Part shown: one piece after another, positions 1 to 44,477 of the stretch
How positions within the stretch are numbered: position 1 is the first letter of the stretch
Layout of the letters: the number at the start of each line of letters is the position of its first letter
Source of the DNA: an uncultured Erysipelotrichaceae bacterium
GTDB taxonomy: Bacteria > Bacillota_I > Bacilli_A > RF39 > UBA660
Assembly: GCA_902783315.1 (NCBI GenBank)
Contig: CACZQK010000073.1
Location: 2,498 to 66,497 of the forward strand
DNA: 64,000 nucleotides
Reading direction: 5' to 3'
Translations under genes and position numbers: made by a program
The notes under the pieces: generated by a model
Database searches by the model: none
What the model was told of the DNA's origin: nothing
Seen by the model: only the letters and a program-made list of their open reading frames with translations

Positions 1-236
1 ATGATTATGAAAAATTAAGATTAAGTGGAATCACTACTACAAATCTATATAGTTATGCTCTATGTGAATATATGGTTGAGGATAGAATACCTTTAGAAAA
101 AATAATCTCAATTGGTATAGACAGTGATCACTATAATGGTGATGTAATGGATACAATAGAAAAAGTAAAGAATATTAAAGAATATTACGGAATAGATATA
201 CCTTTTGAAGATATAGGACACAAAAAGTTGATATAA
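1..236 (+). CDS. Partial CDS (C-terminal end, 5' end outside window); hypothetical protein
   Basis: Open frame from window edge to TAA at 234-236 (...DYEKLRLSGITTTNLYSYALCEY...GHKKLI*); no recognisable motif. Confidence 0.35.
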   Translation, partial: DYEKLRLSGITTTNLYSYALCEYMVEDRIPLEKIISIGIDSDHYNGDVMDTIEKVKNIKEYYGIDIPFEDIGHKKLI

Positions 237-632
237 AGTTAGAGATAATTAATAGATAATACAGAAAGCAACATACTAGTTGGGATTTAGTTCTAATCCG
301 AAAACATTAGATCGTTTAATATATAGGAAATATTTTTAATGCTGAAACAAGGTTAGAGTACTTAACGCTATACTGATACAATTTATTGCAAATCATAACA
401 GTTTTAGAGAGAAAATAATTAAAATGGAAATAAGAAAAAAGTCAATCAATCAAATCTCAATCTAGAAGAATCAATAAAGTTTATTTTGATTAACCAATTA
501 AATTTAAAGTGAGAAAAGAAATTAGTTAAAAATATAAGAATTTAATGGTAGTATATAGTTTTTCGTGATACTTATGGAATGAAAAAATCTGTTTTTTATA
601 TAATATTGCATACTTATGAGGGGGATAATTGC

Positions 633-1376
633 ATGGCTATTGAAAATGAAAATAAAAGAAAATTGGAAAATATATTAAATAAGTATAAATTAAGTCTCGA
701 AGAAAAAGAAGAGCTTATTAATATGATAAGAACAATATATATTCATGATGAATTTCAAAGGAGAATGACTAGTGAGTTTAAGCATCATGGTGAAATTACT
801 TTAGGAACTCATATACTAGAGGATACAGTTGTAACTTATTTGTTATCAAAAAAACATTTAAATAAAAGTAAAACCTTTAATTATAGTATGGATTCAGCTG
901 TAAAAATTGCAATGTTACATGATTTATATACATTACCATGGCAGAATAATCCAGATGCAGGAACAAGAGATTTCTTTAATGGACATGGATTTAGACATCC
1001 AATAGAATCGGTAATTAATGCTATTGCCTGGTATCCTGAATTATTTAATGATGAGAATTCTAAAATAATAATAGATGGTATAGTTCACCATATGTTTCCA
1101 TTGCCTGTAATAGCTTTTGAAATTGATACGAATAATAAAAACGAATTAAAAAATTTTGAATTAGTTAATAGATTAAGTGAAGAAAATATACAATTATTAA
1201 TAGAAAGTTCAAATAGGAATAGAATTGGATTGATTTCATTTAGTAGAAGTTTATATCCTGAAGGAAGAATTGTGTCTTTGGCAGATAAAACAGTATCTAT
1301 AAATCAAATTAAGAATTGGGACAGTGTTGCTGCACTAGTTACAGGACACAACAAGACTCTTTTAAGAAAAAAATAA
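633..1376 (+). CDS. HD-domain phosphohydrolase (track ORF starts at 579; ATG 633 has the better RBS GAGGGGGA)
   Basis: H...HD-type metal-binding motifs (HHGEITLGTHILED, MLHDLYTLPW, IVHHMFP); RBS before ATG 633. Confidence 0.55.
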   Translation: MAIENENKRKLENILNKYKLSLEEKEELINMIRTIYIHDEFQRRMTSEFKHHGEITLGTHILEDTVVTYLLSKKHLNKSKTFNYSMDSAVKIAMLHDLYTLPWQNNPDAGTRDFFNGHGFRHPIESVINAIAWYPELFNDENSKIIIDGIVHHMFPLPVIAFEIDTNNKNELKNFELVNRLSEENIQLLIESSNRNRIGLISFSRSLYPEGRIVSLADKTVSINQIKNWDSVAALVTGHNKTLLRKK

Positions 1377-1557
1377 TAAGTGAGTTTGACTTTTTAAAGT
1401 TTTGGATTATTCTATTTATAGGAATTAGTTGTATTGATAACTTTCTTTAAAAGAGTAGGTTTTAATTCTTTTAGGTAAGAAGAATTATTACATGCTGTGA
1501 GATATCCCTTCGAGTAATGGAGAGATATCTTTTTTCATATAAAAAATCAAAAAAAGG

Positions 1558-1608
1558 TTGACTTCATACTATGTTATTAGTAAAATGTTAATAACAAGCA
1601 AACGCTTG
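1558..1608 (+). promoter_or_regulatory. Consensus sigma-A promoter (TTGACT-N17-TAAAAT) overlapped by an inverted repeat TGTTATTA-N8-TAATAACA and a second palindrome ACAAGC-AAAC-GCTTGT; putative operator
   Basis: -35 at 1558-1563, -10 at 1581-1586 with exact 17-nt spacer; A-tract upstream; motif recurs at 18667-18719. Confidence 0.55.
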
Positions 1609-1718
1609 TATTGATTAAAAGATATGTTTTTAACATGACGATAATAAGAATTTTTGAGAGGCTATAGTTTTATGATGAAGTGTATTAGAGGATACAAATT
1701 TGTAAGGAGATGGTCAAT

Positions 1719-2080
1719 TTGAAACATATTATAATTGCTGGATGTTTGAGAACTGGTAAAACAAGACTTTCCGGTTTATTTGAAGATGGTGGTTACATTT
1801 AAATAATACTATAATAGTATTTTTAGGATATCAAAATGTAGACAAACATAAAAAACTGTGTGCTATAAAGAAATATGATAAAAAGGGAGTATGGACTTTT
1901 TCTAAAAATGATAATGAATTACTTAATCACATCGAATTAGAAATTAAATATAGTATAGAAGCAAAAGAAAAATGTTGTTTATTAGGAATACCGTTTTTTG
2001 ATACTAGTTATGATTTTAATAAAGCTATAAATGATGCTTACAGTTATATAAAAAGTGAACTTGTTAAAGGAGATAATTAA
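1719..2080 (+). pseudogene. Frameshifted, truncated dNMP-kinase-like P-loop NTPase (paralog of the genes at 43384-44477)
   Basis: TTG-initiated LKHIIIAGCLRTGKTRLSGLFEDGGYI* (Walker A) stops at 1800-1802. The +2 frame continues open from 1784 to TAA 2078-2080 (…GIPFFDTSYDFNKAINDAYSYIKSELVKGDN). Its tail resembles the C-termini of the 43384 and 43932 proteins. Confidence 0.4.
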
Positions 2081-2082
2081 AA

Positions 2083-3330
2083 ATGACGCATTGGCGAGAA
2101 GAAAGAAAAATTGCAAGAAAAACGAATAAACCTTCTAAATTTCTTGAACATCAAAATTATTTGGTTCGTGAAGGCTTATTAAATAATCCAAACACAACTT
2201 TTGAAATGCTAGAAGTATTATCACAGGATGATAGTGTACAAATAAGAGAAAAATTAGCAAAGAAGTTTGTTGAAAATGCCATTAATGACAGGAATTGGCG
2301 TGTTCGATATGCGGCAATTAATGATAACCTAGAACTTTCATGTGAAATTCTTGAAAAATTATTGAGTGATAAGGATATCCGTGTCAGAAAAAAGGCAAAC
2401 CAACTTTTAAAAATACAAAAAGAGTATGTTTATCGAGAAGATTTTGATAATGCAATTACAATAAAGCTTGTTATTCCAGGCTCATGTAATGCTAATTGTA
2501 GTTTCTGCTATAACAAACATAGTAATAAAATGGAAAAATGTACTGCAGAATTAAAGCAATATTGGCTTGATAATTTTTTGTTATCACTTGAACAAATTAT
2601 TCTTAAAATTGATAAAAAACAACCTATATCTATTGATATAACAGGTAATGAGCCTACTTTAGATACCAATTTTTTTATTCAGGTTATGCATAAATTAAGG
2701 GGTTTTTCATTAAGGAATGAAGTAAGTAGAATAACTTGTACCACGAATGGTATAGGTCTTAAAAAAGTTGCTCCATTTATGAAGGGAGTTGTAAATTATG
2801 TTAATATTTCTGTTCACGACTATAATCAAGAAAGAAGAAAACAAATATTTGGTACTTATTTTCCAACAGATAAATATTATGAGAATGCTGTTCAACTATT
2901 ATTAGATAATGGTATTCATGCTTCGGCAATTGCAGTTGTTAGTGAGGAAATAAGTAATTTTTCTTCTTGGAGAGATTCTTTTATAAAGTGGGCTGATAAG
3001 ATTGGATTTGTTAGTTTAAGATTTAGGTATGATGTGTATTGCAATAATAATAGTTTTTTAAATTATATGAATAATACTATTAATGATAAAGCGTTTTATA
3101 CTATACAAAAAGAGAATACACCTGATTCAAATTGGTGCCAATTATCTACAAAAGACGGATTCATGGTTTTTTTTCTAAAAGGTGTTATTGATACATATAA
3201 GGTATCTCCTGGAATTGAATTTATTGTTCACGATGATGGAAAAGCATATGCTGATTTTAATAAAAGCGTGCTATTTGAGGAATATGATTTTCCGGTTGGA
3301 TATATTTTTGATAAAAAGTCTATTAAATAA
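2083..3330 (+). CDS. Radical SAM enzyme with an N-terminal HEAT/PBS-lyase-like repeat domain (novel fusion; function unknown)
   Basis: CNANCSFC (CxxxCxxC) at about aa 136-143, ITGNEPTL (GGEP-like SAM motif), TCTTNGIGL (ribose motif), NISVHD; N-terminal 130 aa carry repeated D..VR...A motifs (DDSVQIREKLA, DRNWRVRYAAIN, DKDIRVRKKANQLL); RBS AAAGGAG. Confidence 0.75.
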   Translation: MTHWREERKIARKTNKPSKFLEHQNYLVREGLLNNPNTTFEMLEVLSQDDSVQIREKLAKKFVENAINDRNWRVRYAAINDNLELSCEILEKLLSDKDIRVRKKANQLLKIQKEYVYREDFDNAITIKLVIPGSCNANCSFCYNKHSNKMEKCTAELKQYWLDNFLLSLEQIILKIDKKQPISIDITGNEPTLDTNFFIQVMHKLRGFSLRNEVSRITCTTNGIGLKKVAPFMKGVVNYVNISVHDYNQERRKQIFGTYFPTDKYYENAVQLLLDNGIHASAIAVVSEEISNFSSWRDSFIKWADKIGFVSLRFRYDVYCNNNSFLNYMNNTINDKAFYTIQKENTPDSNWCQLSTKDGFMVFFLKGVIDTYKVSPGIEFIVHDDGKAYADFNKSVLFEEYDFPVGYIFDKKSIK

Positions 3331-3791
3331 AGTAATTTATTTTGTTTGATGATATGGTACGCGATTGTTTTGTTGTAACTAACTATATAGCAGTAATTTA
3401 CTAGATATTGGTTAGATTCATATTATTTAAGTTTCAGTAAAATAATTCTTGACATAGAAAAAGTGAATTTGTATTTTCTACAGATTCGCTTTTTTGTCTT
3501 AAAAATAAGGTAGCAATTCTCTAGTATTTAGTATAATTTAGCTATCTAAAAAATAATAGTAAACAAAAATAAAAGTTTGTCTTATGAAAAGAAATTTATT
3601 ATATTTTTCTAATTTTATACAATATTGATTATCGATAAAAGATATTATATGATCTTGGGAAGAAGTTAAATGGGTTTGTAGATGCTTTTTATAATGACAA
3701 ACTCTATAAAAAATCTTTATTGATAATGTAAAAAAATAAAAAAATATATCTTAGATAATTGCTGATAAAATTGTAGATAGGTAGGATTATT

Positions 3792-4025
3792 GTGGATTTT
3801 GAAAATGTAAGCATAGCAAGTGAAAAAAACACAAGATATTCAGTAAATGAAAAAGAAATGCAAATACGAGTAACTTGTTTGGATGGTACTGTGCAGTTAA
3901 TTTCATATGCTGATTTTGAACAAGATAAGCGTAAAACACTACGAAGTACTAAAGCCTTGTTAGCGGCTTATGTAGGTTCAGCGGTTGTAGTAACTCTTCT
4001 TCTATACTTTTTTGGTGGTTATTAG
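3792..4025 (+). CDS. Small hypothetical protein with C-terminal TM helix (GTG start)
   Basis: RBS GTAGGA 5 nt before GTG; 77 aa; C-terminal hydrophobic segment. Confidence 0.3.
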   Translation: MDFENVSIASEKNTRYSVNEKEMQIRVTCLDGTVQLISYADFEQDKRKTLRSTKALLAAYVGSAVVVTLLLYFFGGY

Positions 4026-4391
4026 AATATAGTACTAATCATAATATACTTTTACCTTGTTTTGTCTTTGATTCTGCTATGTATTTTGAGTACCAAGGTT
4101 ATTTAGAATTTAGTAAAATAAAAGCGTCTGAAAAAGAGAAAAACTATATGAGTCATGCAACCACAGAGATATTTCTTTTAAAATAAGTAGATTAAATATC
4201 TACTTTTTATCTGTTTTAATAAAGAATGATATTTATAAAATGTTTTTTAATTATTAGTTTTTCTGTTATAATTATATTTAGGAATGGTATGACGAAAAAA
4301 ACAACAAGTGCTTCTTGTATATTGTTGTGACAAATTAGAGTGTAATATACAAATGCTACAGTTTTATGAATAAAATAAGGAGAATAGGAAA

Positions 4392-5168
4392 ATGAATAAT
4401 GAAGTAAATAATGGAAAAATTAAGAATATTATTATAATTATATTAGTTGCATTATTGATAATCGCATCAGGATTTATTTACTATGATAAAATTTTTTCTA
4501 ATAAAAAATCAGTTTGTGAAAAAAAATGCCCTGTTTGTGAAAAATGTAATAGTAAATCAGAAATTATTGGTACTTCTTGGTACATTAATCAATATGAGAA
4601 ATTAGTAGAAAAATATATGATGGGGAATCCTCCTACAAATTGTAGTACAATAGAAATATTTGCTAATGACAAAGTAGTAAAGGCAAATGACATTTCGAAT
4701 TTGTATGCTGCTAATACTGTAATACTAAATTTAGAAAACTTACCTAATACTATCAGTTTAGAAGAATTTGATAACGAAATAAAAAAACTATTTGGTAGTG
4801 ACTATGTTTTTAATCCTGAAACTCTTGTTGATAAGGCAGAATTAGCAGAATATAAATATAGTGATAAAGTGTTTATAAAGAGGTCTAATAATTGGGGAGG
4901 AACCTGTGGGCCAACATCAAGTTATAAAGTGGTCGATTTCAAAAAATATGATAATGTCTTAGAAGTATATCTACGTGTTATATTTGCTGGACTAGATGAA
5001 GAAGGTCTTTATATTAATAAATACTATTCAGATTATAATCGTACTAATTTAATTGTGAGTGATAGATATCCTGATGAAGACGAATATAAAAAAGGTGATT
5101 TATATAAATTAACATTTAATACGGATAGTGTAAATTATAAGTTTATTTCATCTGAATTGTCGAATTGA
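4392..5168 (+). CDS. Membrane-anchored extracytoplasmic protein, hypothetical
   Basis: Strong RBS AAGGAGAATAGG; N-terminal TM anchor (IIIIILVALLIIASGFIYY) followed by a Cys-rich segment CEKKCPVCEKC. Confidence 0.55.
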   Translation: MNNEVNNGKIKNIIIIILVALLIIASGFIYYDKIFSNKKSVCEKKCPVCEKCNSKSEIIGTSWYINQYEKLVEKYMMGNPPTNCSTIEIFANDKVVKANDISNLYAANTVILNLENLPNTISLEEFDNEIKKLFGSDYVFNPETLVDKAELAEYKYSDKVFIKRSNNWGGTCGPTSSYKVVDFKKYDNVLEVYLRVIFAGLDEEGLYINKYYSDYNRTNLIVSDRYPDEDEYKKGDLYKLTFNTDSVNYKFISSELSN

Positions 5169-5214
5169 TTAAATAAGGGTATGTGAGTATCATTATATTG
5201 AAAGGAAGTAATTT

Positions 5215-6102
5215 ATGACAAGTAAATTTGCAATAATAGAAATTGGTAGTTATAATACCAAAACGCATATTTATGAAAAAGGTATGTTAATTTCTGATAA
5301 TACTGCTACTATTAAATTTAAATCGGGCTATGAAAAAAACAGTAAAATATTAAAAGAAGATTTAGAATTGTTGTATAAACAAATAGAAAAGACATTAGAA
5401 TACACTAATAATGTTCACATATATGGTTGCAGTATTTTTAGAAACATTTCTAAGAAAGAACTTGCTGAGATTAACCAAACTATTTATGATAGATATAAAT
5501 TAAAGATTGAAGTTGTAACACAAGAAGATGAGGCTAAATATACAGCATTAGGTTGCTATAGTGATCTGAATTATTCGGGAAATGTTTGCGTATTTATAGG
5601 TGGTGGAGGTTCTATTGAATTAGTATTTGTTAATCAAAAAAAGATAATTGATAGGTATTTTTATAATTTTGGTGTTGTAGATGTTACAAATAAATATAAA
5701 AGTTTAAAGGATGATATACCAACATGTACTTTTGACGAAGTATATGATTATGTTGATGCTCTCATTAATAATATAAAAACAAAGGCGGATGTTTTAATTT
5801 TAGCGGGAGGAGATCATATTTATTGGTATAATAATGCAGGATATAAATTGTTGAAAAATACATTATATAAAAATGAAAAGCAAAAATATATGATAACAAA
5901 AGAAATGAGTGATCAATATGATAGAAATGCTTTTGTAGCATCTTTGAAAATGATTCGTAATAATAGTGATAATCCAAGTTGGTTTGATGGATCAAGGGCT
6001 ATGAAAGTAATTACTAATTTAATATCTACTAGAATAGATGCTAAATATATTATTCCAACAAGTATTAATATGGAGGATGGAATAAAAGATATATTGAAAT
6101 AG
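5215..6102 (+). CDS. Ppx/GppA-like (ASKHA fold) phosphatase family protein
   Basis: N-terminal FAIIEIGSYNTK and internal VFIGGGGSIELV glycine-rich motifs, typical of the Ppx/GppA actin-like fold. Confidence 0.5.
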   Translation: MTSKFAIIEIGSYNTKTHIYEKGMLISDNTATIKFKSGYEKNSKILKEDLELLYKQIEKTLEYTNNVHIYGCSIFRNISKKELAEINQTIYDRYKLKIEVVTQEDEAKYTALGCYSDLNYSGNVCVFIGGGGSIELVFVNQKKIIDRYFYNFGVVDVTNKYKSLKDDIPTCTFDEVYDYVDALINNIKTKADVLILAGGDHIYWYNNAGYKLLKNTLYKNEKQKYMITKEMSDQYDRNAFVASLKMIRNNSDNPSWFDGSRAMKVITNLISTRIDAKYIIPTSINMEDGIKDILK

Positions 6103-6725
6103 ACTAAGATATTTAATATTCAAATATATAGTTTTCTGCAACTTTAGCGAGAAAGTAAAATATGGTTAAAAAGAATTGATAAACTAAATATCATTTATAA
6201 TGGAGATTTGATTATTGGTAATTTAACAAAAAAATAAAAAAGTATGAAAAGTTTTTTAGAAATAGGAATTTGAATGTTTTCTTTGATAGTGATATATATT
6301 TCATTACTAGTATTGATGAGAATGCTTCTATAATTAAGACTTCTAAAACTAAATATTTATGTTTGATATATGCAAAAAAGACTAATAAATGGATAGTTAA
6401 ATAGTATTTTTGCTAAATACATAAGAATTGCTACTAATTATGTATGTATTATATTAAATAATAAGGATAAGCTTAATACAATAATGATTTAGAAAATAGA
6501 TAGAAAAGTGGTATGTCATGTCAGATACTTATTTAGTGGAGTTGTGTATGTAGAAAGCAAAAATACTAACAAGTAGTAAGGAATCTTCCCATAATTTTTC
6601 TCAAAAGAGTATCAACGATGGCTAGCGATGGTGAAGCTAATATTTCATGTTTTTAACTATTATTTTTAAATTAATTATATATTTGAAAATAAATATGATA
6701 AAATAAGATCGTTGAGGTGATAAAT

Positions 6726-9080
6726 ATGGATTATGCACTTGAGAGTGGGAAAACAAAACAAGCTTATGATATGGCAATTATTGATGCTTTTAGGGCACAA
6801 TATGGTCATGAATTGTCTTTTTTGGTGGGGGATGGTCAAAAATCGCCTGAGAATTATGGAAAAAATGATAGAAATACTTATGGTGCAATTTATTATCCAG
6901 AAGAGGCCACTATTAATTATGATAATGTTAAAGAATGGAACAGGACAATCTTAGGTCTCTTACTATTTCACTATTTAAAAGATGGTAAGTATGAAAACTT
7001 TATTCAATTACAAAAAGATGAAGATTTTCAAGGGGATGTTTTATCTAAAGAATCATTTGAGTATCTTAGTAAATTTATGATTGATAATTTTGATACTAAG
7101 GAAAAAGAAAGTTTGCTTTTATATTATATGGTCATCAACGATTTAGGAAAGAGTCAGAAAGTAAAAGATATTTTATCTGAATATGGAATTGTATCAGAAA
7201 ATCATGATAGGCTGTTATCTTATTTGGTAAGTTCTGGAAACAGCGAATTAATAGGTAGAATAATGCCTGGATTTTACTCATTCAATGATGAAAGTAAGCA
7301 AAAACTAATTGATGTTTTATCGTATGGCATAAATGTGGGACAATGTATTCAAGGCGAATGTCCGGGATATATGTTTAATAATCTTGAAAGTCTATCTCTT
7401 GATGCTAGATTATTGATGTTTGGGGAGGCTATATTAGATATTGGTGGTGTTAATGGTCATGGTACTAATTTTAAAGGGACGTCTATTTTAACTGAATCTA
7501 TGACTGAAAATTTTATAACTGCTGTAGATGCTATCGAAACTTGCTCGAAAGTAGAAGATATATATGATACATATTTAGCTCAAAGAGCTAATATGATGCA
7601 GATACAAACTACTGATCTATTATTAAGAAAAGCTATTACTAGAATTTGTTTAATGATGCGCTTATTTAAAAAAGAAGATTTTTATGTGGTTGAAAATGAA
7701 ATTTTTAATAATAGAGATAGATATGCGTTTTTAATTAATGAATTAAATAAGACTGGTTATGAGGGAGAACCTGCAATTTTGTTATATTATGCGCCATCTT
7801 TATTGAGTAATGCTAAAAAGTACTATAGTAATAATGAGACTAGGGTGGCATCTGAAAATCCTATAGTTTCTTCTTTAAAAATTTGTTTACCGTTTATGCA
7901 AAATATAATGATGGAAGCAAGAATGAAAAATAATAGCATTGGTAATGGTATAATGGAGATTATGCTTGAAAAACCAGTAAAGGCTTTTGAAGTGGATCCT
8001 AAATTATTATTTGACATGAAATTAAGTATTATAAATGAATATGAAGGAGTTGTTAAAAAACCTGCCAAGGTTTTAATGTTTAGTCATGTGAGTGATATTG
8101 ATGGTTTGGGAGCAGTTGTTCTTGCACAACTTGCATTTGGAACTGATGATGTTGACTATGTACTTGTGAATGATCCAAACAATTTAAGAGAAATTGTAGA
8201 AAATAAATTAAACAGTGGAGAATTGTCTATATATGACATGATTTTTATTACTGATTTAGCGTTAAAAGATCCAACACTTAATGAAGTGGCTAAAAGTGAT
8301 ATAAAAGATAAAATTCAGATTTTTGATCATCATCAAAGTGCAATCGCTGATGGTTTGGATAGATATCCTTTTACTACTATTATAGAAAAGTTTGAAGATG
8401 GAGAAAAAACATGTGGTACTTCTTTGTTTTATGATTATTTAGTAAGACATGGTCTTATACAACGGTCAGCTTCTTTAGATAAATTTGTGGAGATGACTAG
8501 GATAGAGGATAATTTAATATATGAACGGTATGGAGAGTTTGGAGAAAAGGCCCATAATCTTGCTTTACTTCATTCTAAAGAAGAAAATGGTTATATAAGC
8601 GCAATGCGTGATAAATTAAAGAATAATCCAGAAGATTTTACATTTACAAAAAAAGAATTAAATCTTATTAATTCTAGAAAAGAAGAAATCCATAAATATC
8701 TTTCAGAAATTTTAAATAATATGGTGTATATGGTTGATGAAGCTGGGAACAAATTTGGCACTTGTTTTATTGATTATGCTTTTCGTAATGATGTTTTTAA
8801 ATCTATTGTTGCAAGTAATAAAAACGGTGCTGCATATTTAGTATTAGTTTCATTAGATAAAGGCCCATATGGACGAAAATCATATAGAGCTCTTGATGAG
8901 AATGTTGATGTTGGCGAAATTGCAAGATGTCATGGTGGTGGAGGACATGTTGATGCTGCCGGGGTTGGGATAACGGCTGAACAAAGGGCAGCTATTTGTG
9001 AAATGGATGACTCTTTTGCTCTTGAATATCTAGTGAATTCTTGCTATAAGGATGGATATCCTGTATATGTTAAAAAATGA
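6726..9080 (+). CDS. DHH/DHHA1 phosphoesterase with a ~440-aa N-terminal domain of unknown function (track start GTG 6717; ATG 6726 after RBS GAGGTGA)
   Basis: C-terminal half has DHH motif I (HVSDIDGLGAVV), motif III (IFDHHQS) and the DHHA1 GGGH motif (HGGGGHVDAAG); N-terminal half has no recognisable motif. Confidence 0.7.
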   Translation: MDYALESGKTKQAYDMAIIDAFRAQYGHELSFLVGDGQKSPENYGKNDRNTYGAIYYPEEATINYDNVKEWNRTILGLLLFHYLKDGKYENFIQLQKDEDFQGDVLSKESFEYLSKFMIDNFDTKEKESLLLYYMVINDLGKSQKVKDILSEYGIVSENHDRLLSYLVSSGNSELIGRIMPGFYSFNDESKQKLIDVLSYGINVGQCIQGECPGYMFNNLESLSLDARLLMFGEAILDIGGVNGHGTNFKGTSILTESMTENFITAVDAIETCSKVEDIYDTYLAQRANMMQIQTTDLLLRKAITRICLMMRLFKKEDFYVVENEIFNNRDRYAFLINELNKTGYEGEPAILLYYAPSLLSNAKKYYSNNETRVASENPIVSSLKICLPFMQNIMMEARMKNNSIGNGIMEIMLEKPVKAFEVDPKLLFDMKLSIINEYEGVVKKPAKVLMFSHVSDIDGLGAVVLAQLAFGTDDVDYVLVNDPNNLREIVENKLNSGELSIYDMIFITDLALKDPTLNEVAKSDIKDKIQIFDHHQSAIADGLDRYPFTTIIEKFEDGEKTCGTSLFYDYLVRHGLIQRSASLDKFVEMTRIEDNLIYERYGEFGEKAHNLALLHSKEENGYISAMRDKLKNNPEDFTFTKKELNLINSRKEEIHKYLSEILNNMVYMVDEAGNKFGTCFIDYAFRNDVFKSIVASNKNGAAYLVLVSLDKGPYGRKSYRALDENVDVGEIARCHGGGGHVDAAGVGITAEQRAAICEMDDSFALEYLVNSCYKDGYPVYVKK

Positions 9081-9111
9081 TAAAACGAGATATGGAAGAT
9101 TGGGGGAAGCT

Positions 9112-9669
9112 ATGAATATAAAAATAGATAATATTACTGATAAAAAGAAATATTTGGATGAGTCAATGTATATTAGTCTGTATATTCGTAAAATAATGAA
9201 AAATAGAAATAAAAAAATAAAACTTTATACAAGAAAATTATTGGAAACAATTATTCTTTCCATTATGATTATTGCCTTTTTGATTTTTATTTATGTATCT
9301 AGTGAATATATGAGAGTGTCTTGTATATGTTTAATCGCAATATATACATATATTTTTTTGTTGTATTTGATAAAACTAATAAAAACACATAAATTCTTAA
9401 AAAGACGATGCCAAGAAAAAACAGATTCTATTATAAAAATTAGTGATAAAAAAATAGTGTTAAAAAATAGCAATATTGGAATGTCGGTAGAGCAGGATTG
9501 GAAAGATATTTGTTTTATTAAAGAATCTAAATATTGTATTATATTTATCAATAATCAAGAAAATCAATTAAAACCATATATTGGAATTCCTATTGAATAT
9601 AAAAGTGAGTTAATGAAAGCGATTGAAAAATACAATATAGAAATACCTATAATACAAACTAAAAAGTAA
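9112..9669 (+). CDS. YcxB-like membrane protein (hypothetical)
   Basis: RBS GGGGGAAG before ATG 9112; two TM helices then a C-terminal globular domain; the track ORF from 9052 lies upstream of the best RBS. Confidence 0.45.
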   Translation: MNIKIDNITDKKKYLDESMYISLYIRKIMKNRNKKIKLYTRKLLETIILSIMIIAFLIFIYVSSEYMRVSCICLIAIYTYIFLLYLIKLIKTHKFLKRRCQEKTDSIIKISDKKIVLKNSNIGMSVEQDWKDICFIKESKYCIIFINNQENQLKPYIGIPIEYKSELMKAIEKYNIEIPIIQTKK

Positions 9670-9860
9670 TATCTAAAAGTTTTTAAAAATATCAATAGAA
9701 AGAGATAGTAAGTTTTGCAAAGCTAAGGCTTCTTTTATAGCGTTTTTTTTGCTTATCAGTAAATGACTTTGGTATAGTGAAGAGTGCTATTCAATTGTTG
9801 TAATTGGGGATTTATATATTATCATTAGAGGATGCTTGTTCTTCAGAAGGGAGAAAAAAT

Positions 9861-10550: not shown

Positions 10551-10693
10551 AAAGATAGTTGAAGTAACTTTTTTATAGTATAGAAAATCGTATTTTATAG
10601 CTAATACTAAAATGTTAGCTATTTTTTAATTTTTATTTACTTACTACTTATATGAGTATAAAATAGTATGTGTATAGAGTAAGGAGAGTGAAT

Positions 10694-12151
10694 ATGAAAA
10701 AAGGTTTTGATAATGCAAAATATGTAAAAATACAAAGTGAGAAAATAAAAGAAAGATTTAAATTGTTTGACAAATTGTATTTAGAAGTTGGGGGTAAGTT
10801 ATTTGACGATTCCCATGCTGCTAGAATATTACCGGGATTTAAAAATGATGTAAAAATCAGTATGTTTCAAGAACTTAAAAATGATTTGGAAATTATTTTT
10901 TGTATTAATGCTGGTGATATAGAAAGAAATAAGACCAGAGGGGAGTATGGGATTACTTACGATCAAGAAACATTATCTTTAATTGATAAATCTAAAAAGC
11001 TTGGATTTATCGTTAATAGTGTTGTAATTACTTTATATAAAAATCAAGTTAGTGTTGATAAGTTTATTAATAAGTTGAATAGAAATGGTATTAAAACTTA
11101 TATTCATACTGCAACAAAAGGGTATCCTACTGATGTGGAAACTATTGTGAGTGATGAAGGTTATGGGGCTAATCCTTATATTGAAACTACAAAACCTTTG
11201 ATATTAGTTAATGCCCCTGGACCTGGTTCTGGAAAACTTGCTACTTGTCTTTCACAAATTTATCATGAAAATAAAAGGGGAGTAAATGCTGGATATGCGA
11301 AGTTTGAGACTTTTCCAGTTTGGAACTTGCCTTTAAGGCATCCTGTTAACTTAGCCTATGAGGCGGCAACCGCTGATTTGAAAGATGTTAATATGATTGA
11401 CTCTTTTCATTTGGAAAAATATGGTGTTCAGGCTGTAAACTATAATCGTGATATTGAAACATTTCCTATTTTAAAGAGTATTTTAAATAAAGTTTCTAAT
11501 GAAGCTGTTTATTATTCTCCAACCGATATGGGTGTTAATATGGTTGGATTTTGTATAACAGATGATGAGGTAGTAGAAGATGCTTGCAAAAAAGAAATTG
11601 TTAGAAGATATTATAATGAGTTAAATAATTATAGAATGGGTTTATGTGATGAGGATACTTATAAAAAAGTTAAATTATTGATGAATGAATTAAATATTGA
11701 TGAATATTATTTAGATATTATTAAACCAGCTCTTGAGAAAAAGAAATTAGAGGGGGACTTACCAGTAATAGCTATGAAAATTAATCGAAAGATTATTACA
11801 GGTAAGCAAACGGATTTACTTACTCCAGCTGGTGCAGTTGTTTTAAATGCCATCAAATATTTGAGTAAAATTCCTGATGATATATATTTACTTAGTCCTA
11901 ATATTTTAGAACCTATTTTAAAATTGAAAAAAAATATGGGTACTGGAGATAGACTTAATTTAAACGAAGTTTTGGTAGCACTTAGTATTTGCTCTGTTAC
12001 AAATCCTGCAGCCAATGAAGCTTTTGTTAGTCTTCGTAAATTAAGAGGAAGTGAAGCGCATGCTACTTATATTGTTACGGGTAGTGATAAGGATGCATTA
12101 AAAGATTTGAAAATTAATCTTACTTGTGAAAGTGAATTTATTGATGAATAA
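10694..12151 (+). CDS. DUF1846 / UPF0371 family protein
   Basis: RBS AAGGAGAG; N-terminus MKKGFDNAKYVKIQSEKIKER…GGKLFDDSHAARILPGF matches my recollection of UPF0371 proteins of Firmicutes. Confidence 0.6.
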   Translation: MKKGFDNAKYVKIQSEKIKERFKLFDKLYLEVGGKLFDDSHAARILPGFKNDVKISMFQELKNDLEIIFCINAGDIERNKTRGEYGITYDQETLSLIDKSKKLGFIVNSVVITLYKNQVSVDKFINKLNRNGIKTYIHTATKGYPTDVETIVSDEGYGANPYIETTKPLILVNAPGPGSGKLATCLSQIYHENKRGVNAGYAKFETFPVWNLPLRHPVNLAYEAATADLKDVNMIDSFHLEKYGVQAVNYNRDIETFPILKSILNKVSNEAVYYSPTDMGVNMVGFCITDDEVVEDACKKEIVRRYYNELNNYRMGLCDEDTYKKVKLLMNELNIDEYYLDIIKPALEKKKLEGDLPVIAMKINRKIITGKQTDLLTPAGAVVLNAIKYLSKIPDDIYLLSPNILEPILKLKKNMGTGDRLNLNEVLVALSICSVTNPAANEAFVSLRKLRGSEAHATYIVTGSDKDALKDLKINLTCESEFIDE

Positions 12152-17978: not shown

Positions 17979-18365
17979 ATGGTAGAAAAGTTATTAAATC
18001 TGCAAAAAAATGCTTATTGTGAATACTCAAAATTTCCTGTTTCGGCTATTGTTGTTACTAAAGATGGCAGTGAATTTGCTGGAGTAAATGTTGAAGATGC
18101 TTCTTATAGAGCTGGAGCTTGTGCTGAACGTGTTGCCTTATTTTCAATGCTTGCTGCAGGATATAAAAAGGGGGATGTTTCTGAAATTAATGTTATGATT
18201 TCTAATGGTAGAGTTGGTACCCCTTGTTTTGTGTGCCGACAAATGATTCTTGAATTATGTGATCATGATACGCGTATTCACTGCTATTCTACAAGTGGTG
18301 AAAGAAAAACATTTACTATTGATGAATTGTGTCCATTTCCTTTTTCTGAAGATGATTTGAATTAA
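17979..18365 (+). CDS. cdd: Cytidine deaminase
   Basis: Zinc-binding motifs CAERVAL and PCFVCRQ; 128 aa; RBS GTGAGGTG. Confidence 0.9.
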   Translation: MVEKLLNLQKNAYCEYSKFPVSAIVVTKDGSEFAGVNVEDASYRAGACAERVALFSMLAAGYKKGDVSEINVMISNGRVGTPCFVCRQMILELCDHDTRIHCYSTSGERKTFTIDELCPFPFSEDDLN

Positions 18366-18666: not shown

Positions 18667-18719
18667 TTGACAAACTTGTTTGTTATTAATATAATGTTAA
18701 TAACAAACAAAAAAGTTTG
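18667..18719 (+). promoter_or_regulatory. Perfect consensus sigma-A promoter (TTGACA-N17-TATAAT) embedded in a ~49-bp palindrome (CAAACTTGTTTGTTATTAA / TTAATAACAAACAAAAAAGTTTG); putative operator. A related half-site TGTTATTAACA lies at 18737
   Basis: -35 at 18667-18672, -10 at 18690-18695 with exact 17-nt spacer; inverted-repeat arms centred on the -10; same core as 1558-1608. Confidence 0.6.
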
Positions 18720-18774
18720 CTGTTATTTATATCCTCTGTTATTAACATATGGATATTAAGAAAGGGTGATTAGT

Positions 18775-19380
18775 ATGAATCTTGGTTATAAAATCATAGA
18801 TCAGTATAGTTATATTACAAAAGAAGGGAAAGCTAAAAATAATTATTATCTTAAGAGAAATTTTAGTAAAAAAGAGATAGAAAAAACAAAGTTATTGCAA
18901 AAAGGTTTTTTAGACTTTGAACAAAAAGTAAGGGGAAGTGATGAACTGTTATGTAATTGTATTCAAGGAATAAAATATTATAGTGATAAAGGGTATATTT
19001 GGTGGGTTAATGCGGATAGATCTTTGGTTGATATTTACTATTTTGGAAACGAATATGATGAAGCATTAGTAAATGGTCTTATAGAATATGAATTTCGTAT
19101 CAATTTGCATAGAGAATTAATGCGTCGAGAAAAGTTAAATCGACAATTTGCAAAAAGATTTCCAGAAATAGATGGAGATTATCATGGACCATTCTTTTTT
19201 GCAGAATTTGCATTACAAGACTTTCGAAAATATTATGGAAATAATATACCTTATTATCTTGTTCGATATTATGAAGATTATTTGGAGGCTGTCGAAGGAG
19301 AAAATTATCCTAATCGATATGATTTCTTCGAGAATAAATTGGTATTACAAAAAAAATTAACCAGACATTATAAATTGTAA
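18775..19380 (+). CDS. Hypothetical protein (no recognisable domain)
   Basis: RBS GGGTGA before ATG 18775 (track ORF from 18766); 201 aa, aromatic-rich; its 3' end abuts the IS remnant. Confidence 0.5.
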   Translation: MNLGYKIIDQYSYITKEGKAKNNYYLKRNFSKKEIEKTKLLQKGFLDFEQKVRGSDELLCNCIQGIKYYSDKGYIWWVNADRSLVDIYYFGNEYDEALVNGLIEYEFRINLHRELMRREKLNRQFAKRFPEIDGDYHGPFFFAEFALQDFRKYYGNNIPYYLVRYYEDYLEAVEGENYPNRYDFFENKLVLQKKLTRHYKL

Positions 19381-24343: not shown

Positions 24344-24946
24344 ATGAATTATGATTTGGAAATGGAAAAACAGATAAAGAACATAAAAAAAGGTACTAAG
24401 CTTTTTTTACACGTTTGTTGTGCTCCTTGTTCATCGGCTGTACTTGAAAGGTTAGGAAATTTTTTTGAGATTACTCTTTTTTATTATAATCCAAACATTA
24501 CGGAAAAGGATGAATATTTAAAGAGAATCGATGAAGTTAAAAATCTAGTATCTTATCTTGAATGTGAACATAAAATTTCTGTAATAGAAGGAGACTATGA
24601 CCCAAATATCTTTTTTGAAATGGCTCGTGGGTTGGAAAATGAGCCGGAGAAAGGGCGAAGATGCTTTAAATGTTATGAACTTCGTTTGAGGGAAACAGCT
24701 AGAATGGCTAAGGCCTTGGGTTTTGATTATTTTTGCACTACTTTGACATTATCTCCTCATAAAAACTCTAACTGGATAAATGAAATTGGAATGAATTTAA
24801 GTGAAGAGTATTATGTTAATTATTTGTATTCTGATTTTAAAAAGAAAGGTGGATACAAAAGAAGTATTGAGCTTTCTCATCAATATCATCTATATAGGCA
24901 GGACTATTGTGGTTGTATTTATTCTAGAAAGAAAAAAAATTCGTGA
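24344..24946 (+). CDS. queH: Epoxyqueuosine reductase QueH (DUF208)
   Basis: Hallmark LHVCCAPCSSA motif and conserved Cys pairs (CFKCYELR…, YCGCIY); ~200 aa. Confidence 0.8.
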   Translation: MNYDLEMEKQIKNIKKGTKLFLHVCCAPCSSAVLERLGNFFEITLFYYNPNITEKDEYLKRIDEVKNLVSYLECEHKISVIEGDYDPNIFFEMARGLENEPEKGRRCFKCYELRLRETARMAKALGFDYFCTTLTLSPHKNSNWINEIGMNLSEEYYVNYLYSDFKKKGGYKRSIELSHQYHLYRQDYCGCIYSRKKKNS

Positions 24947-43383: not shown

Positions 43384-43935
43384 TTACACCTCTTCTAAAA
43401 TATGTTTTAATTGATTGATTGTATTTTCGATAGTTCCATTATTCAAAATGTAGTAATCTGCATAGGCTATTGGGCCACCTTTATATAAGTTCTCAATTTC
43501 AGATAAATCTCGATAGCAAATGGCTTCTAAGTTGAACGGTCTCTCATGACGTTTTTCCACTCTTGTGTAGCGGATCTTTTTATCGGTAACAATACATATT
43601 AATTTTAACGTTGGGAATTTTTTAATTAAATATTTGTATTCGTACCAGGAATATAAACCATCAACTATTACGTTGTTTTCCTTTATTTCTTTTGCGATAT
43701 CTTTTTCTATAAATTTGGCATAACATTCAGGACCATGTTCTTTCCGAAGGTTTTCACGAAAGTTTTTTTCACTAACTCCATCTTCTGTTCTTTCTATTCC
43801 AGCCTCTTGCATTAGTTTATAGGTAATTCCTCCCATATATAATTTTTTCCAATTGTTTTTTTCTAAATATTCGGTGATAATGCTTTTACCAGCTCCACTC
43901 ATGCCAACAACTGCAATTAGTTTATTCATAATCAA
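43384..43935 (-). CDS. P-loop NTPase, dNMP-kinase-like (paralog A)
   Basis: Walker A VGMSGAGKS; C-terminus …YADYYILNNGTIENTINQLKHIL resembles the phage-T4-type dNMP kinase tail. Confidence 0.55.
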   Translation of the reverse strand: MIMNKLIAVVGMSGAGKSIITEYLEKNNWKKLYMGGITYKLMQEAGIERTEDGVSEKNFRENLRKEHGPECYAKFIEKDIAKEIKENNVIVDGLYSWYEYKYLIKKFPTLKLICIVTDKKIRYTRVEKRHERPFNLEAICYRDLSEIENLYKGGPIAYADYYILNNGTIENTINQLKHILEEV

Positions 43936-44477
43936 TCCTCATAATTTTCTTCACTTCTTACTATCTCTAATGCGGCATTTTTTAGATCTGCAAGAGATCT
44001 ATTTTCAATAACATAGTCAAATTGGTTATAGTCTAATATTTCTTTTTCGGTTATATGATTAGCCTCTTCTTCTGATAATTTGGCATCATAATTTTTTCTT
44101 TCTAATTTAATGGTAACGACATCATCATATTTATTTTTTATTCCTTCAAATTCACGGATTAGTCTAGCATCAACAATAATAAATGTATCAAAGAAATTCA
44201 AAAGGATCTCAATATCTTCATATAATCGTCTTAAAAGAAAATCTTTTTTACCCATTTTTTCAGAAATAATTTCAATTCCCATTTTTTGTAAAAATTCGCG
44301 GGGCTTATCTTCTTCTCGCCCGTCCCAGTCAAAATAGTTTTTGGCAAAAGTATAAAGTGGTTCCGTAATATGCATTACACAAGGCTTATAACCATAGTCT
44401 TTTAATTCCTCTCTTAAATATTCACCAAAAGTGTTTTTCCCTGTTTTTGCCAAACCACCTATTACAAATATTTTCAT
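43932..44477 (-). CDS. P-loop NTPase, deoxynucleoside-monophosphate-kinase-like (paralog B)
   Basis: Walker A IGGLAKTGKNT; overall resemblance to T4 gp1 dNMP kinase (N-terminus MKIFVIGG…GK.T, C-terminus FDYVIENRSLADLKNAALEI); RBS AAGGAGGA; 4-nt overlap with paralog A. Confidence 0.55.
   Translation of the reverse strand: MKIFVIGGLAKTGKNTFGEYLREELKDYGYKPCVMHITEPLYTFAKNYFDWDGREEDKPREFLQKMGIEIISEKMGKKDFLLRRLYEDIEILLNFFDTFIIVDARLIREFEGIKNKYDDVVTIKLERKNYDAKLSEEEANHITEKEILDYNQFDYVIENRSLADLKNAALEIVRSEENYED

Follow-up and report, generated by a model that had tools for sequence, protein, structure and literature searches.

A HEAT-repeat radical-SAM gene behind a decayed kinase gene in an uncultured Erysipelotrichaceae bacterium: a new enzyme family with possible links to NAD salvage

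Among the compact radical S-adenosylmethionine (SAM) enzymes, MoaA (GTP 3',8-cyclase) and viperin both act on the ribose of nucleoside triphosphates, while the SPASM/Twitch enzymes CteB, YydG/EpeE, SuiB and SkfB are peptide maturases. A regulon for the salvage of nicotinamide adenine dinucleotide (NAD) under the regulator NrtR has been described (Rodionov et al. 2008, PMC2330246), and the PnuC/NadR and NAMPT/NMNAT modules of phages are known NAD-reconstitution countermeasures (PMC13464706). Here we describe a gene that shares traits with each of these systems. It lies at positions 2083-3330 of a stretch of 64,000 nucleotides (nt) from an uncultured Erysipelotrichaceae bacterium, referred to below as the window, encodes HEAT repeats fused to a radical-SAM core and is preceded by the remnant of a P-loop kinase gene. 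The protein belongs to a radical-SAM family that is new and unnamed, and its fusion with HEAT repeats is novel as well. Our preferred reading, to which we give slightly less than even credence, is that it is a nucleotide-directed radical-SAM enzyme of an NAD-salvage regulon; its reaction and substrate are put forward as proposals only.

Radical-SAM enzymes without an assigned function are numerous, and pointers to their substrates are usually lacking. For this family three independent genomic signals point toward NAD and nucleotide salvage, namely the partner kinase, a two-site operator, and the NAD genes found beside bacterial and phage copies. If the preferred reading is true, the family would stand for an unrecognised radical step in the NAD metabolism of anaerobic gut bacteria and their phages, and NAD depletion and reconstitution (NARP1-3) is now seen as a central battleground between host and phage. 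Should it prove wrong, what remains is a widespread orphan enzyme encoded by phages, with at least 64 IMG/VR contigs that carry its gene. The label of prokaryotic viperin (pVip), raised for this locus in an initial annotation made from the sequence alone, can be discarded whichever reading holds. The observation behind that annotation is real and its interpretation partly right, and the locus is more than a pVip look-alike.

The gene and the parts of its product, in amino acids (aa), are as follows.

2083-3330, + strand: intact HEAT/radical-SAM gene, 415 aa plus stop codon, every family-invariant residue present
2083-2427, + strand: N-terminal alpha-solenoid (HEAT / leucine-rich-repeat-variant-like) with nine helices, about aa 1-115
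2455-3030, + strand: radical-SAM partial barrel, about aa 125-316, delimited by Pfam, the 44-member alignment and the structural model
2485-2508, + strand: CX3CX2C motif (C135, C139, C142)
3031-3327, + strand: family-specific C-terminal beta-rich domain, without conserved cysteines

The architecture proposed earlier, HEAT repeats fused to a compact single-cluster radical-SAM core without a SPASM domain, is borne out. Both Pfam models exceed their cut-offs: HEAT (PF02985) with 30.7 bits versus 23.5, and Radical_SAM (PF04055) with 52.9 bits versus 29.5 (aa 133-281, E 6e-14). An AlphaFold model of the 415-aa protein (mean pLDDT 95.2, pTM 0.90) places nine helices within aa 4-114 and alternating strands and helices over aa 125-316; matches of the N-terminal repeat region in BFVD are annotated as 'Leucine rich repeat variant'. 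The motifs that had been pointed out, CNANCSFC (aa 135-142), GNEPTL, TNG and NISVHD, are all present and invariant or nearly so in the 44 family members (GNEP at aa 188-191, TTNG at aa 220-223, NISVH at aa 241-245), and LRFR is found at aa 312-315. The only conserved cysteines in the alignment are the nearly invariant C135, C139 and C142. Because no further cysteine is conserved, a SPASM, Twitch or MoaA-type auxiliary cluster is absent. Invariant polar or charged residues are found at the ends of the barrel strands (K128, D185, T187, N222, N241, H245, R313 and R315) and in the C-terminal domain (E379, D385, Y389, D391 and K394), where W351, G377 and G386 are conserved as well. So dense a set of invariant polar residues would be typical of a small-molecule active site.

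The C-terminal domain is rare. A phmmer search with aa 287-415 against 1.84 billion protein representatives returned only 27 matches; in the full-length ones the domain occupies the C-terminus, as in the window protein, and two long proteins among the 27 match over short repeated stretches only. By eye, the domain looks like a SPASM/Twitch hairpin without its cysteines, and the segment 'S.GIE(Y/F)V(I/V)..DG..Y.D' aligns with the D210 region of EpeE at a non-significant score.

No curated family claims the protein. The NCBIfam scores lie far below the cut-offs of the MoaA, viperin, NrdG2 and SPASM models (NrdG2: 29 bits versus 131; all SPASM models: at most 26 bits versus at least 225), QueE-type models give E 1e-3 at best, and the PHROG match, PHROG 1802, is a generic 'radical SAM domain' family. 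The top 50 Foldseek matches in the PDB are all radical-SAM enzymes or complexes with one (probability 1.00); MoaA, SuiB/SkfB and numerous viperins are the best of them, with TM-scores of about 0.5 and an identity of 10-15%. When the family profile is compared with PDB sequences, the matches are CteB (E 5e-10), YydG/EpeE (E 3e-5) and viperin (E about 0.008), all confined to the generic N-terminal half. We are dealing with a small, unnamed, single-[4Fe-4S] radical-SAM family that has a MoaA/viperin-like core and a C-terminal beta domain of its own, and that is distinct within the MoaA/viperin/Twitch-like part of the superfamily. Full-text literature searches for HEAT/radical-SAM fusions, or for radical-SAM enzymes near PurZ, NAD-salvage or gut-phage genes, returned no description of it.

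MoaA (1TV7, 2FB2) is the best structural match, with a Foldseek E of 6e-10 and target-normalised TM-scores of 0.52-0.57, and also the best NCBIfam match, at about 36 bits versus cut-offs of 284 (TIGR02666), 325 (TIGR02668) and 231 (NF001199). The core of either protein is a compact partial barrel with CX3CX2C close to its N-terminus. The basic residue seven positions before the first cysteine (K128) presumably has its counterpart in R17 of S. aureus MoaA, and the conserved arginine of LRFR on strand 6 in the IRFIE motif of MoaA. However, the identity is 14-15%, the C-terminal domain differs, the second, C-terminal [4Fe-4S] cluster of MoaA with its three conserved cysteines has no equivalent in any of the 44 sequences, and molybdenum-cofactor genes are absent near the window gene.

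Viperin (5VSL, 6Q2P) is, like the window protein, a compact single-cluster radical-SAM enzyme (target-normalised TM-scores 0.44-0.61). Residues such as K120, K220, R245 and K247 of mouse viperin bind the nucleoside triphosphate; an R-x-R/K motif on strand 6 is presumably common to both proteins (R245/K247 in viperin), and some copies of the family adjoin a P-loop kinase. The viperin identity that had been suggested does not hold up against the models. The NCBIfam model viperin_w_prok (NF038283) gives 34.0 bits versus a cut-off of 180 and covers aa 131-255 only, and two PADLOC pVip models (39.2 and 32.0 bits) are matched at positions 3-113 of 257 and 5-141 of 262, thus in their first half only, over aa 128-258. 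At 10-15% identity the alignments end at about aa 258 and leave the C-terminal extension of viperin unmatched; the kinase partner belongs to a different, NAD-linked family and is optional, and the window family is mainly phage-encoded. The wider nucleotide-related theme of the initial annotation fits, with MoaA and viperin as the nearest folds and genomic links to nucleotide and NAD metabolism, whereas its viperin and deoxynucleoside monophosphate (dNMP) kinase readings do not.

The SPASM/Twitch maturases (CteB 5WGG, YydG/EpeE 8AI1-6, SuiB and SkfB) provide the best PDB sequence matches over the N-terminal half as well as good fold matches, and the position of the C-terminal beta-hairpin is reminiscent of the Twitch domain. 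The window protein differs from them in lacking the auxiliary-cluster cysteines and a recognition (RRE) domain, and the surroundings of the genes of its family are free of genes for a precursor peptide, a protease or a transporter.

Directly upstream of the radical-SAM gene two fragments of a kinase gene remain.

1710-1802, + strand: 5' fragment of the kinase pseudogene; frame 0 gives MVNLKHIIIAGCLRTGKTRLSGLFEDGGYI followed by a stop codon; contains the Walker A motif GCLRTGKT; equals aa 1-27 of intact homologues
1796-2079, + strand: remaining 3' part of the kinase pseudogene, read in the -1 frame; equals aa 94-184 of intact homologues; without a start codon of its own

The P-loop gene had been described as frameshifted and internally shortened, and indeed frame 0 stops at 1802 with the remainder in the -1 frame. 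Intact homologues measure 186-198 aa, of which the window retains only the two parts listed. The 5' fragment is 69% identical to the N-terminus of the kinase in the related locus L009 (such loci are referred to here by L numbers), and the 3' fragment is 58% identical to the same protein and 50% to a kinase from an NAD operon, that of L028. In a DNA alignment with the L009 kinase, window 1719-1786 corresponds to nt 15-82 and window 1799-2062 to nt 300-563. Between window 1786 and 1799 only 12 nt stand in place of 217 nt of the L009 gene; the net deletion, of about 205 nt, costs about 66 codons and, not being a multiple of three, alters the reading frame. The deleted stretch contains most of the invariants of the kinase family (H28, Y29, K30, D32, K35, R36, W49, S53, P54, D81, P87 and D89). 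Two other assemblies (L177 and L178), with 99.4% identity to the window and set apart from it by single-nucleotide polymorphisms, show the identical junction; since both carry it, the lesion is an inherited deletion rather than a read error. The last kinase codons contain the ribosome-binding site of the radical-SAM gene (GGAG, 2069-2072), an overlap that had also been noticed before. Overall, the radical-SAM gene, its ribosome-binding site, promoter and operator are intact, and the kinase has been destroyed by the net deletion of about 205 bp. A split kinase in L176 was considered as a second pseudogene and rejected, as the split is a scaffold gap (run of N).

Intact kinase copies, for which related genomes were to be checked, are found directly upstream of the radical-SAM gene in eight loci (L001, L002, L007, L009, L097, L098, L099 and L132). 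The gap between the two genes is at most 4 nt in the subclade of the window, which makes them a two-gene operon. Only in this subclade does the kinase precede the radical-SAM gene (groups 0, where it is decayed, 1, 3, 4 and 5), and it occurs in none of the phage groups. Its predicted fold (pLDDT 93.5) is that of a generic nucleoside-monophosphate kinase, with Foldseek TM-scores of about 0.6, and comparison of the kinase-family profile with the PDB gave P-loop noise only. The earlier assignment as dNMP-kinase-like is not supported by Pfam, where an intact homologue scores 14 bits versus a cut-off of 27.1 for DNMK (PF21448). The tail of the gene had been likened to two paralogues at window 43384-44477, but BLASTP aligns the kinase with one of them over the P-loop only (24 aa) and finds nothing against the other. 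That pair, two tandem dNMP-kinase-like genes on the - strand adjoining the alanyl-tRNA synthetase gene in the bacterial chromosome, is unrelated to the decayed kinase: one gene matches PF21448 and phrog_139 (E 9e-19), the other AAA_18 and phrog_139 (E 2e-7).

The other homes of the kinase family are NAD-salvage operons on three contigs, where it lies beside pnuC, NMNAT, cinA and nrtR.

L026: pncA-pncB-nudix-nadE-NMNAT-pnuC-kinase-nrtR
L179 (L031 extended): layout as in L026, plus a second NMNAT-like gene and cinA
L180 (L028 extended): pncA-pncB-nudix-rSAM-nadE-...-NMNAT-kinase-cinA-methyltransferase-nrtR-NAD kinase

The kinase linked to the radical-SAM gene in L009 is 60% identical to the NAD-operon kinase of L028, and two NAD-operon kinases are 61% identical to each other; judged by these values, the two sets look like one orthologous family. 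Because the kinase gene directly follows pnuC in L026 and an NMNAT-like gene in L179 and L180, a kinase of the nicotinamide-riboside type is the parsimonious choice, and we infer from operon context alone that the protein is such a nucleoside kinase.

A second connection with the same operons is found in the promoter region.

1558-1586, + strand: predicted sigma-70-type promoter of the kinase-remnant/radical-SAM operon; -35 TTGACT at 1558-1563, 17-nt spacer, -10 TAAAAT at 1581-1586
1571-1597, + strand: operator site 1, ATGTTATTAGTAAAATGTTAATAACAA; palindrome TTGTTATTAA-N7-TTAATAACAA with two mismatches; overlaps the -10 box
1624-1650, + strand: operator site 2, weak; four mismatches; 53 nt downstream of site 1; not significant alone

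The promoter, predicted by consensus match only, agrees with the consensus at 10 of 12 positions, which makes it joint best in window 1300-3800, and the same layout is seen in L009, L179 and L180. The operator consists of two TGTTAWTAAC copies 14 bp apart (GT-N5-AC). The window contains two matches to its 27-bp palindrome, where 100 shuffles predict 0.00; for each of the three sequences put to this test (the window, L026 and L009), shuffling with dinucleotides preserved gave an expectation of 0.00 sites. With 0-3 mismatches the operator recurs at position 5373 of L009, before an intact kinase/radical-SAM pair, and immediately upstream of pncA in the three NrtR-encoding NAD-salvage operons (L026 52, L179 4733 and L180 3931). 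A two-site arrangement with a spacing of 53-58 nt is repeated at window 18680/18736, L179 4733/4791 and L180 3931/3988, and the operator overlaps the -10 box in the window, L179 and L180. As all three NAD operons with the operator encode NrtR, this regulator is the obvious candidate binder; about 30 open reading frames (ORFs) scanned in the 64-kb window include no NrtR. The operator does not match published sites of NiaR (PMC2330245).

The additional pair of sites in the window comprises a perfect copy at 18680-18706 and a weak copy at 18736-18762, and precedes an ORF at 18766-19380 that is presumably a further member of the same regulon. For the product of this ORF (204 aa) Pfam gives no match, and none of the fetched loci encodes a homologue; the gene that precedes it, at 17979-18365, appears by eye to be cytidine deaminase-like.

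Genes of NAD metabolism are also encountered around other members of the radical-SAM family. In L104 a 78%-identical radical-SAM gene is followed, at a distance of 80 nt, by a gene with a PncC domain (81 bits versus a cut-off of 69), and in L101 an AAA_28 P-loop protein is encoded upstream of the HEAT/radical-SAM gene. Among phages, pncA, a prs-like gene and NAMPT lie within 6 kb of the core gene in L046, as do NMNAT-like and NadE genes in L038 and L117. Half-size PnuC-like genes are found within the same distance in L017 (5785-6036) and L018 (5254-5517); they encode membrane proteins of 83-87 aa that match the C-terminal third of PnuC (NMN_transporter, 31 and 43 bits versus 27.3) and may be half-size transporters of nicotinamide riboside (NR). 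As they occur in only two of the 51 groups into which the family loci fall at 90% identity, they lend weak support to the NAD link. The likeness to the phage pathways NARP2 and NARP3 (PMC13464706) lies in the phage copies near NAMPT, NMNAT, NadE or PnuC-like genes; the NARP3 abstract names two genes only, and no radical-SAM component. With the NrtR regulon the locus shares the kinase family, housed in pncA-pncB-nadE-NMNAT-pnuC-...-nrtR operons, and the operator, and again the paper on that regulon describes no radical-SAM component (PMC2330246).

A second compact MoaA/viperin-like radical-SAM family without a specific name, here called rSAM-B (at least 187 clusters), occurs inside NAD-salvage clusters.

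L180, 6693-7520: rSAM-B gene in the bacterial NAD operon, between nudix and nadE
L181, 8001-8855: rSAM-B gene on a 249-kb jumbo-phage-like contig, directly after NAMPT and near an NMNAT-NUDIX fusion

The two families are related across the whole barrel and distinct from each other (hhalign probability 95%, E 2.5e-8). A bolder proposal, which we regard as doubtful though conceivable, is that the window family and rSAM-B are the first radical-SAM enzymes of pyridine-nucleotide metabolism, switched on by gut Firmicutes with the NAD-salvage regulon and carried by large gut phages beside their NAD-reconstitution genes. A radical step on NR, nicotinamide mononucleotide, NAD or ADP-ribose would then serve salvage, repair or the formation of a modified NAD analogue, and the phage copies might help to survive NAD-depleting defences. 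Two candidates were dropped in this part of the analysis. The radical-SAM gene upstream of the family member in L096 and L006 was not taken as an orthologue of the L028 NAD-operon radical-SAM gene, only 87 N-terminal residues being matched, and L008 10817-11806, nicotinamidase-like by eye, has no match in Pfam.

For a nucleotide-directed enzyme of the NAD-salvage regulon the following course of events may be imagined. NrtR would bind the operator, and a build-up of ADP-ribose or a shortage of NAD would induce the operon. The substrate, whose ribose would lose a hydrogen to the 5'-deoxyadenosyl radical formed by reductive cleavage of SAM, would be a small phosphorylated nucleoside, with a pyridine nucleotide or another common ribonucleotide as the most plausible choice. 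The small phosphorylated nucleoside is suggested because MoaA and viperin are the nearest folds and because the invariant polar residues are so dense; a ubiquitous substrate is implied by phage copies that stand alone, and the genomic context favours a pyridine nucleotide. The kinase would have the accessory task of feeding or trapping the substrate, and another route, where there is one, would make it dispensable. The HEAT domain could be an add-on for partner binding or regulation; as it is missing from most phage copies, the solenoid is probably not catalytic.

A total of 123 homologues were found. Loci of the family number 80 in metagenomes, 20 in GTDB genomes and 64 among the viral contigs of IMG/VR, many of which measure 90-245 kb and stem from the human gut. 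The full-length HEAT fusions (46-81% identity to the window protein) occur in chromosomal, metagenome-assembled genome (MAG) or mobile-element contexts and on a few phage-like contigs. Far more numerous are the homologues of about 300 aa that lack the HEAT region (43-48% identity over the core), which are common on gut phage contigs of 90-250 kb. One otherwise full-length HEAT fusion, P0041 (400 aa, on a contig of up to 72.8 kb), has lost CX3CX2C through an internal deletion and shows many substitutions in conserved motifs; from its sequence it is probably an inactive or repurposed copy.

Gene neighbourhoods were compared by clustering all ORFs of at least 60 aa that lie no more than 5 kb from the gene; the 157 loci covered form the 51 groups mentioned above. 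The recurrent neighbours are a Thg1-like gene (7 groups) and, in 4 groups each, the kinase, a LysR regulator, a second radical-SAM gene and a PurA/PurZ-like gene. The last, adenylosuccinate-synthetase-like (Adenylsucc_synt, E 1e-29), lies directly upstream of the core gene and overlaps it in L085 (4865-6082) and L109 (131-1348), and is found within 4 kb of it in two further groups (L050, L063 and others); these neighbours may hint at 2-aminoadenine (Z) genomes. In two phages the core gene sits within a tRNA gene array, of 14 tRNAs in L080 (94-12283) and 8 tRNAs in L082 (2309-5966). Extra small radical-SAM-like genes of several unrelated types lie beside the family member in L096 (5045-5950), L010 (1123-1980) and L111 (2382-3083), and in L003-L005 at 5349-5999 and 8809-9708 (10630 in L005); a multi-radical-SAM pathway is possible in some phages. 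A LysR-type regulator is divergent from the kinase/radical-SAM pair in L001 (4468-5346, - strand), L007, L097, L098, L099 and L176, with an intergenic distance of about 90 nt, and a related gene also flanks the family gene in L015.

Several findings weigh against the placement in an NAD-salvage regulon. No neighbour family is present in more than 7 of the 51 groups, so that the gene is essentially autonomous. The kinase occurs in 5 of the 9 full-HEAT groups at 90% identity (it is absent from groups 2, 6, 7 and 8) and is decayed in the window itself, which also undermines the pairing of kinase and radical-SAM enzyme as the genomic signature it had been taken for. Moreover, the kinase shows no significant match to NadR/AAA_28 (14.7 bits versus 27), to any named kinase or in NCBIfam, and is not NadR-like by sequence. 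The shared operator is found only in the lineages of the window and L009, its place in L001, L007, L097, L098 and L099 being taken by the divergent LysR regulator. Only about 5 phage groups have NAD genes within 6 kb, and such neighbours may reflect a mere clustering of auxiliary metabolic genes. The best PDB sequence matches are peptide maturases, CteB followed by YydG. Within the barrel, the Lys/Arg of MoaA and the Lys/Asn of viperin on strand 2 (K120 and N122 in viperin) presumably correspond to Ser183 and Asp185 here, a mapping by motif alignment and not by superposition in which R313-x-R315 of strand 6 is kept. The conserved strand-2 lysine of MoaA and viperin contacts the triphosphate. 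The Ser/Asp pair speaks for a mode of substrate binding unlike that of either enzyme. Finally, the operator is unlike the published NrtR core (GT-N7-AC in a 21-bp palindrome; PMC2330246), which leaves co-occurrence alone as the link to NrtR, although NrtR motifs are known to diverge in some Firmicutes (PMC2330246).

Other explanations have to be weighed against these facts. An enzyme that modifies tRNA or another RNA, with the bacterial HEAT solenoid binding RNA and the phages adjusting or protecting tRNAs, would agree with the two tRNA arrays, where the tRNA genes end about 30 nt upstream of the core gene, and with the commonest neighbour, a Thg1-like protein of tRNA 5'-end repair (Pfam Thg1, E 4e-27). 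Nearby in L003-L005 are genes for RNA ligase and KTI12/AAA_33 kinase, and the tRNA enzyme Elp3 is among the weaker fold matches. However, 38 of 41 scanned loci contain no tRNA genes, TRAM, THUMP, PUA or other RNA-binding domains are absent, most phage homologues have no extra domain whatsoever, and no named model of a tRNA-modifying radical-SAM enzyme scores well, so we consider this explanation unlikely. We also think it unlikely that the enzyme modifies DNA precursors or nucleotides unrelated to NAD, as in phage DNA hypermodification or purine/pyrimidine metabolism, with bacterial copies that are domesticated or prophage-derived. The MoaA/viperin-like fold would fit this function, as would the PurA/PurZ-like genes, the adjoining extra radical-SAM genes, a MazG gene directly upstream in L011, a dNMP-kinase-like gene in L021 and, by eye, the dUTPase-like, NrdG-like and deoxyribonucleotidase-like genes near the core-only gene of L018; yet no such neighbour occurs in more than 4 of the 51 groups.

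A peptide or protein maturase derived from SPASM/Twitch stock, in which the HEAT repeats have replaced the N-terminal recognition domain and bind the peptide or protein, is rather improbable. It would explain the sequence matches to CteB and YydG/EpeE, the presence of SuiB and SkfB among the top folds and the hairpin-like C-terminal segment, and HEAT repeats are classic protein-binding modules. Against it, the sequence matches do not extend beyond the generic half, the auxiliary-cluster cysteines are not conserved, and the phage copies are found alone, with neither a precursor or transporter nor a conserved or recurrent small neighbour among the clustered ORFs of at least 60 aa. The small-peptide substrate considered in the initial annotation, encoded by a 16-aa ORF at 1671-1721, has no counterpart in other kinase/radical-SAM loci (L001, L007, L009, L098 and L099) and carries a non-synonymous change in a 99.4%-identical strain. 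Very improbable is a viperin-like defence enzyme that makes a chain-terminating didehydro-deoxy (ddh) nucleotide from a nucleoside triphosphate supplied by the kinase. The viperins among the top folds and the weak pVip and viperin model matches speak for it, and so do the patchy and partly mobile contexts (a serine recombinase in L096 and, by eye, a LexA/CI-like repressor in L006). But MoaA and the peptide maturases score equally well or better, the viperin model stays far below its cut-off with alignments that stop short of the C-terminal extension, most family members are phage-encoded, and the dispensable kinase belongs to the NAD-salvage-linked family and not to the CMP/UMP kinases. All four of these explanations leave both the kinase with its NAD-operon homes and the operator shared with those operons unaccounted for, and the maturase and viperin explanations also disagree with defining features of those enzymes, as set out above.

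As to the genomic setting, the window (G+C of about 27%) is part of the chromosome of a low-GC spore-forming Firmicute and not of a phage. Its housekeeping and sporulation genes include those for AlaRS, MutS, a Mur ligase, a LytR-CpsA-Psr protein, DNA polymerase III delta, MgsA, SpoIIGA, a sigma factor, SpoIVB and SpoIIM. In phage genomes Megablast found no match to window 1-6000, and tblastn with the radical-SAM core gave only partial matches of 24-29% identity, in jumbo phages of Erwinia, Dickeya and Yersinia. A search of window 1-7000 against Rfam (E up to 1) yielded no riboswitch or leader, only chance snoRNA matches. The ORF at 633-1376, previously called an HD phosphohydrolase, was dropped from the module, as it has no sequence match in Pfam, NCBIfam, PHROG or the PDB, the related loci contain no homologue of it, and its place beside the radical-SAM gene is not conserved. 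Elsewhere in the window a DUF6829+DHHA1 protein (6717-9080), a DUF1846 protein (10670-12151) and the epoxyqueuosine reductase QueH (24344-24946) are encoded, none of them linked to the radical-SAM gene. The nearest relatives of the latter in genome collections come from MAGs of uncultured Bacilli and Clostridia, for example from rabbit gut.

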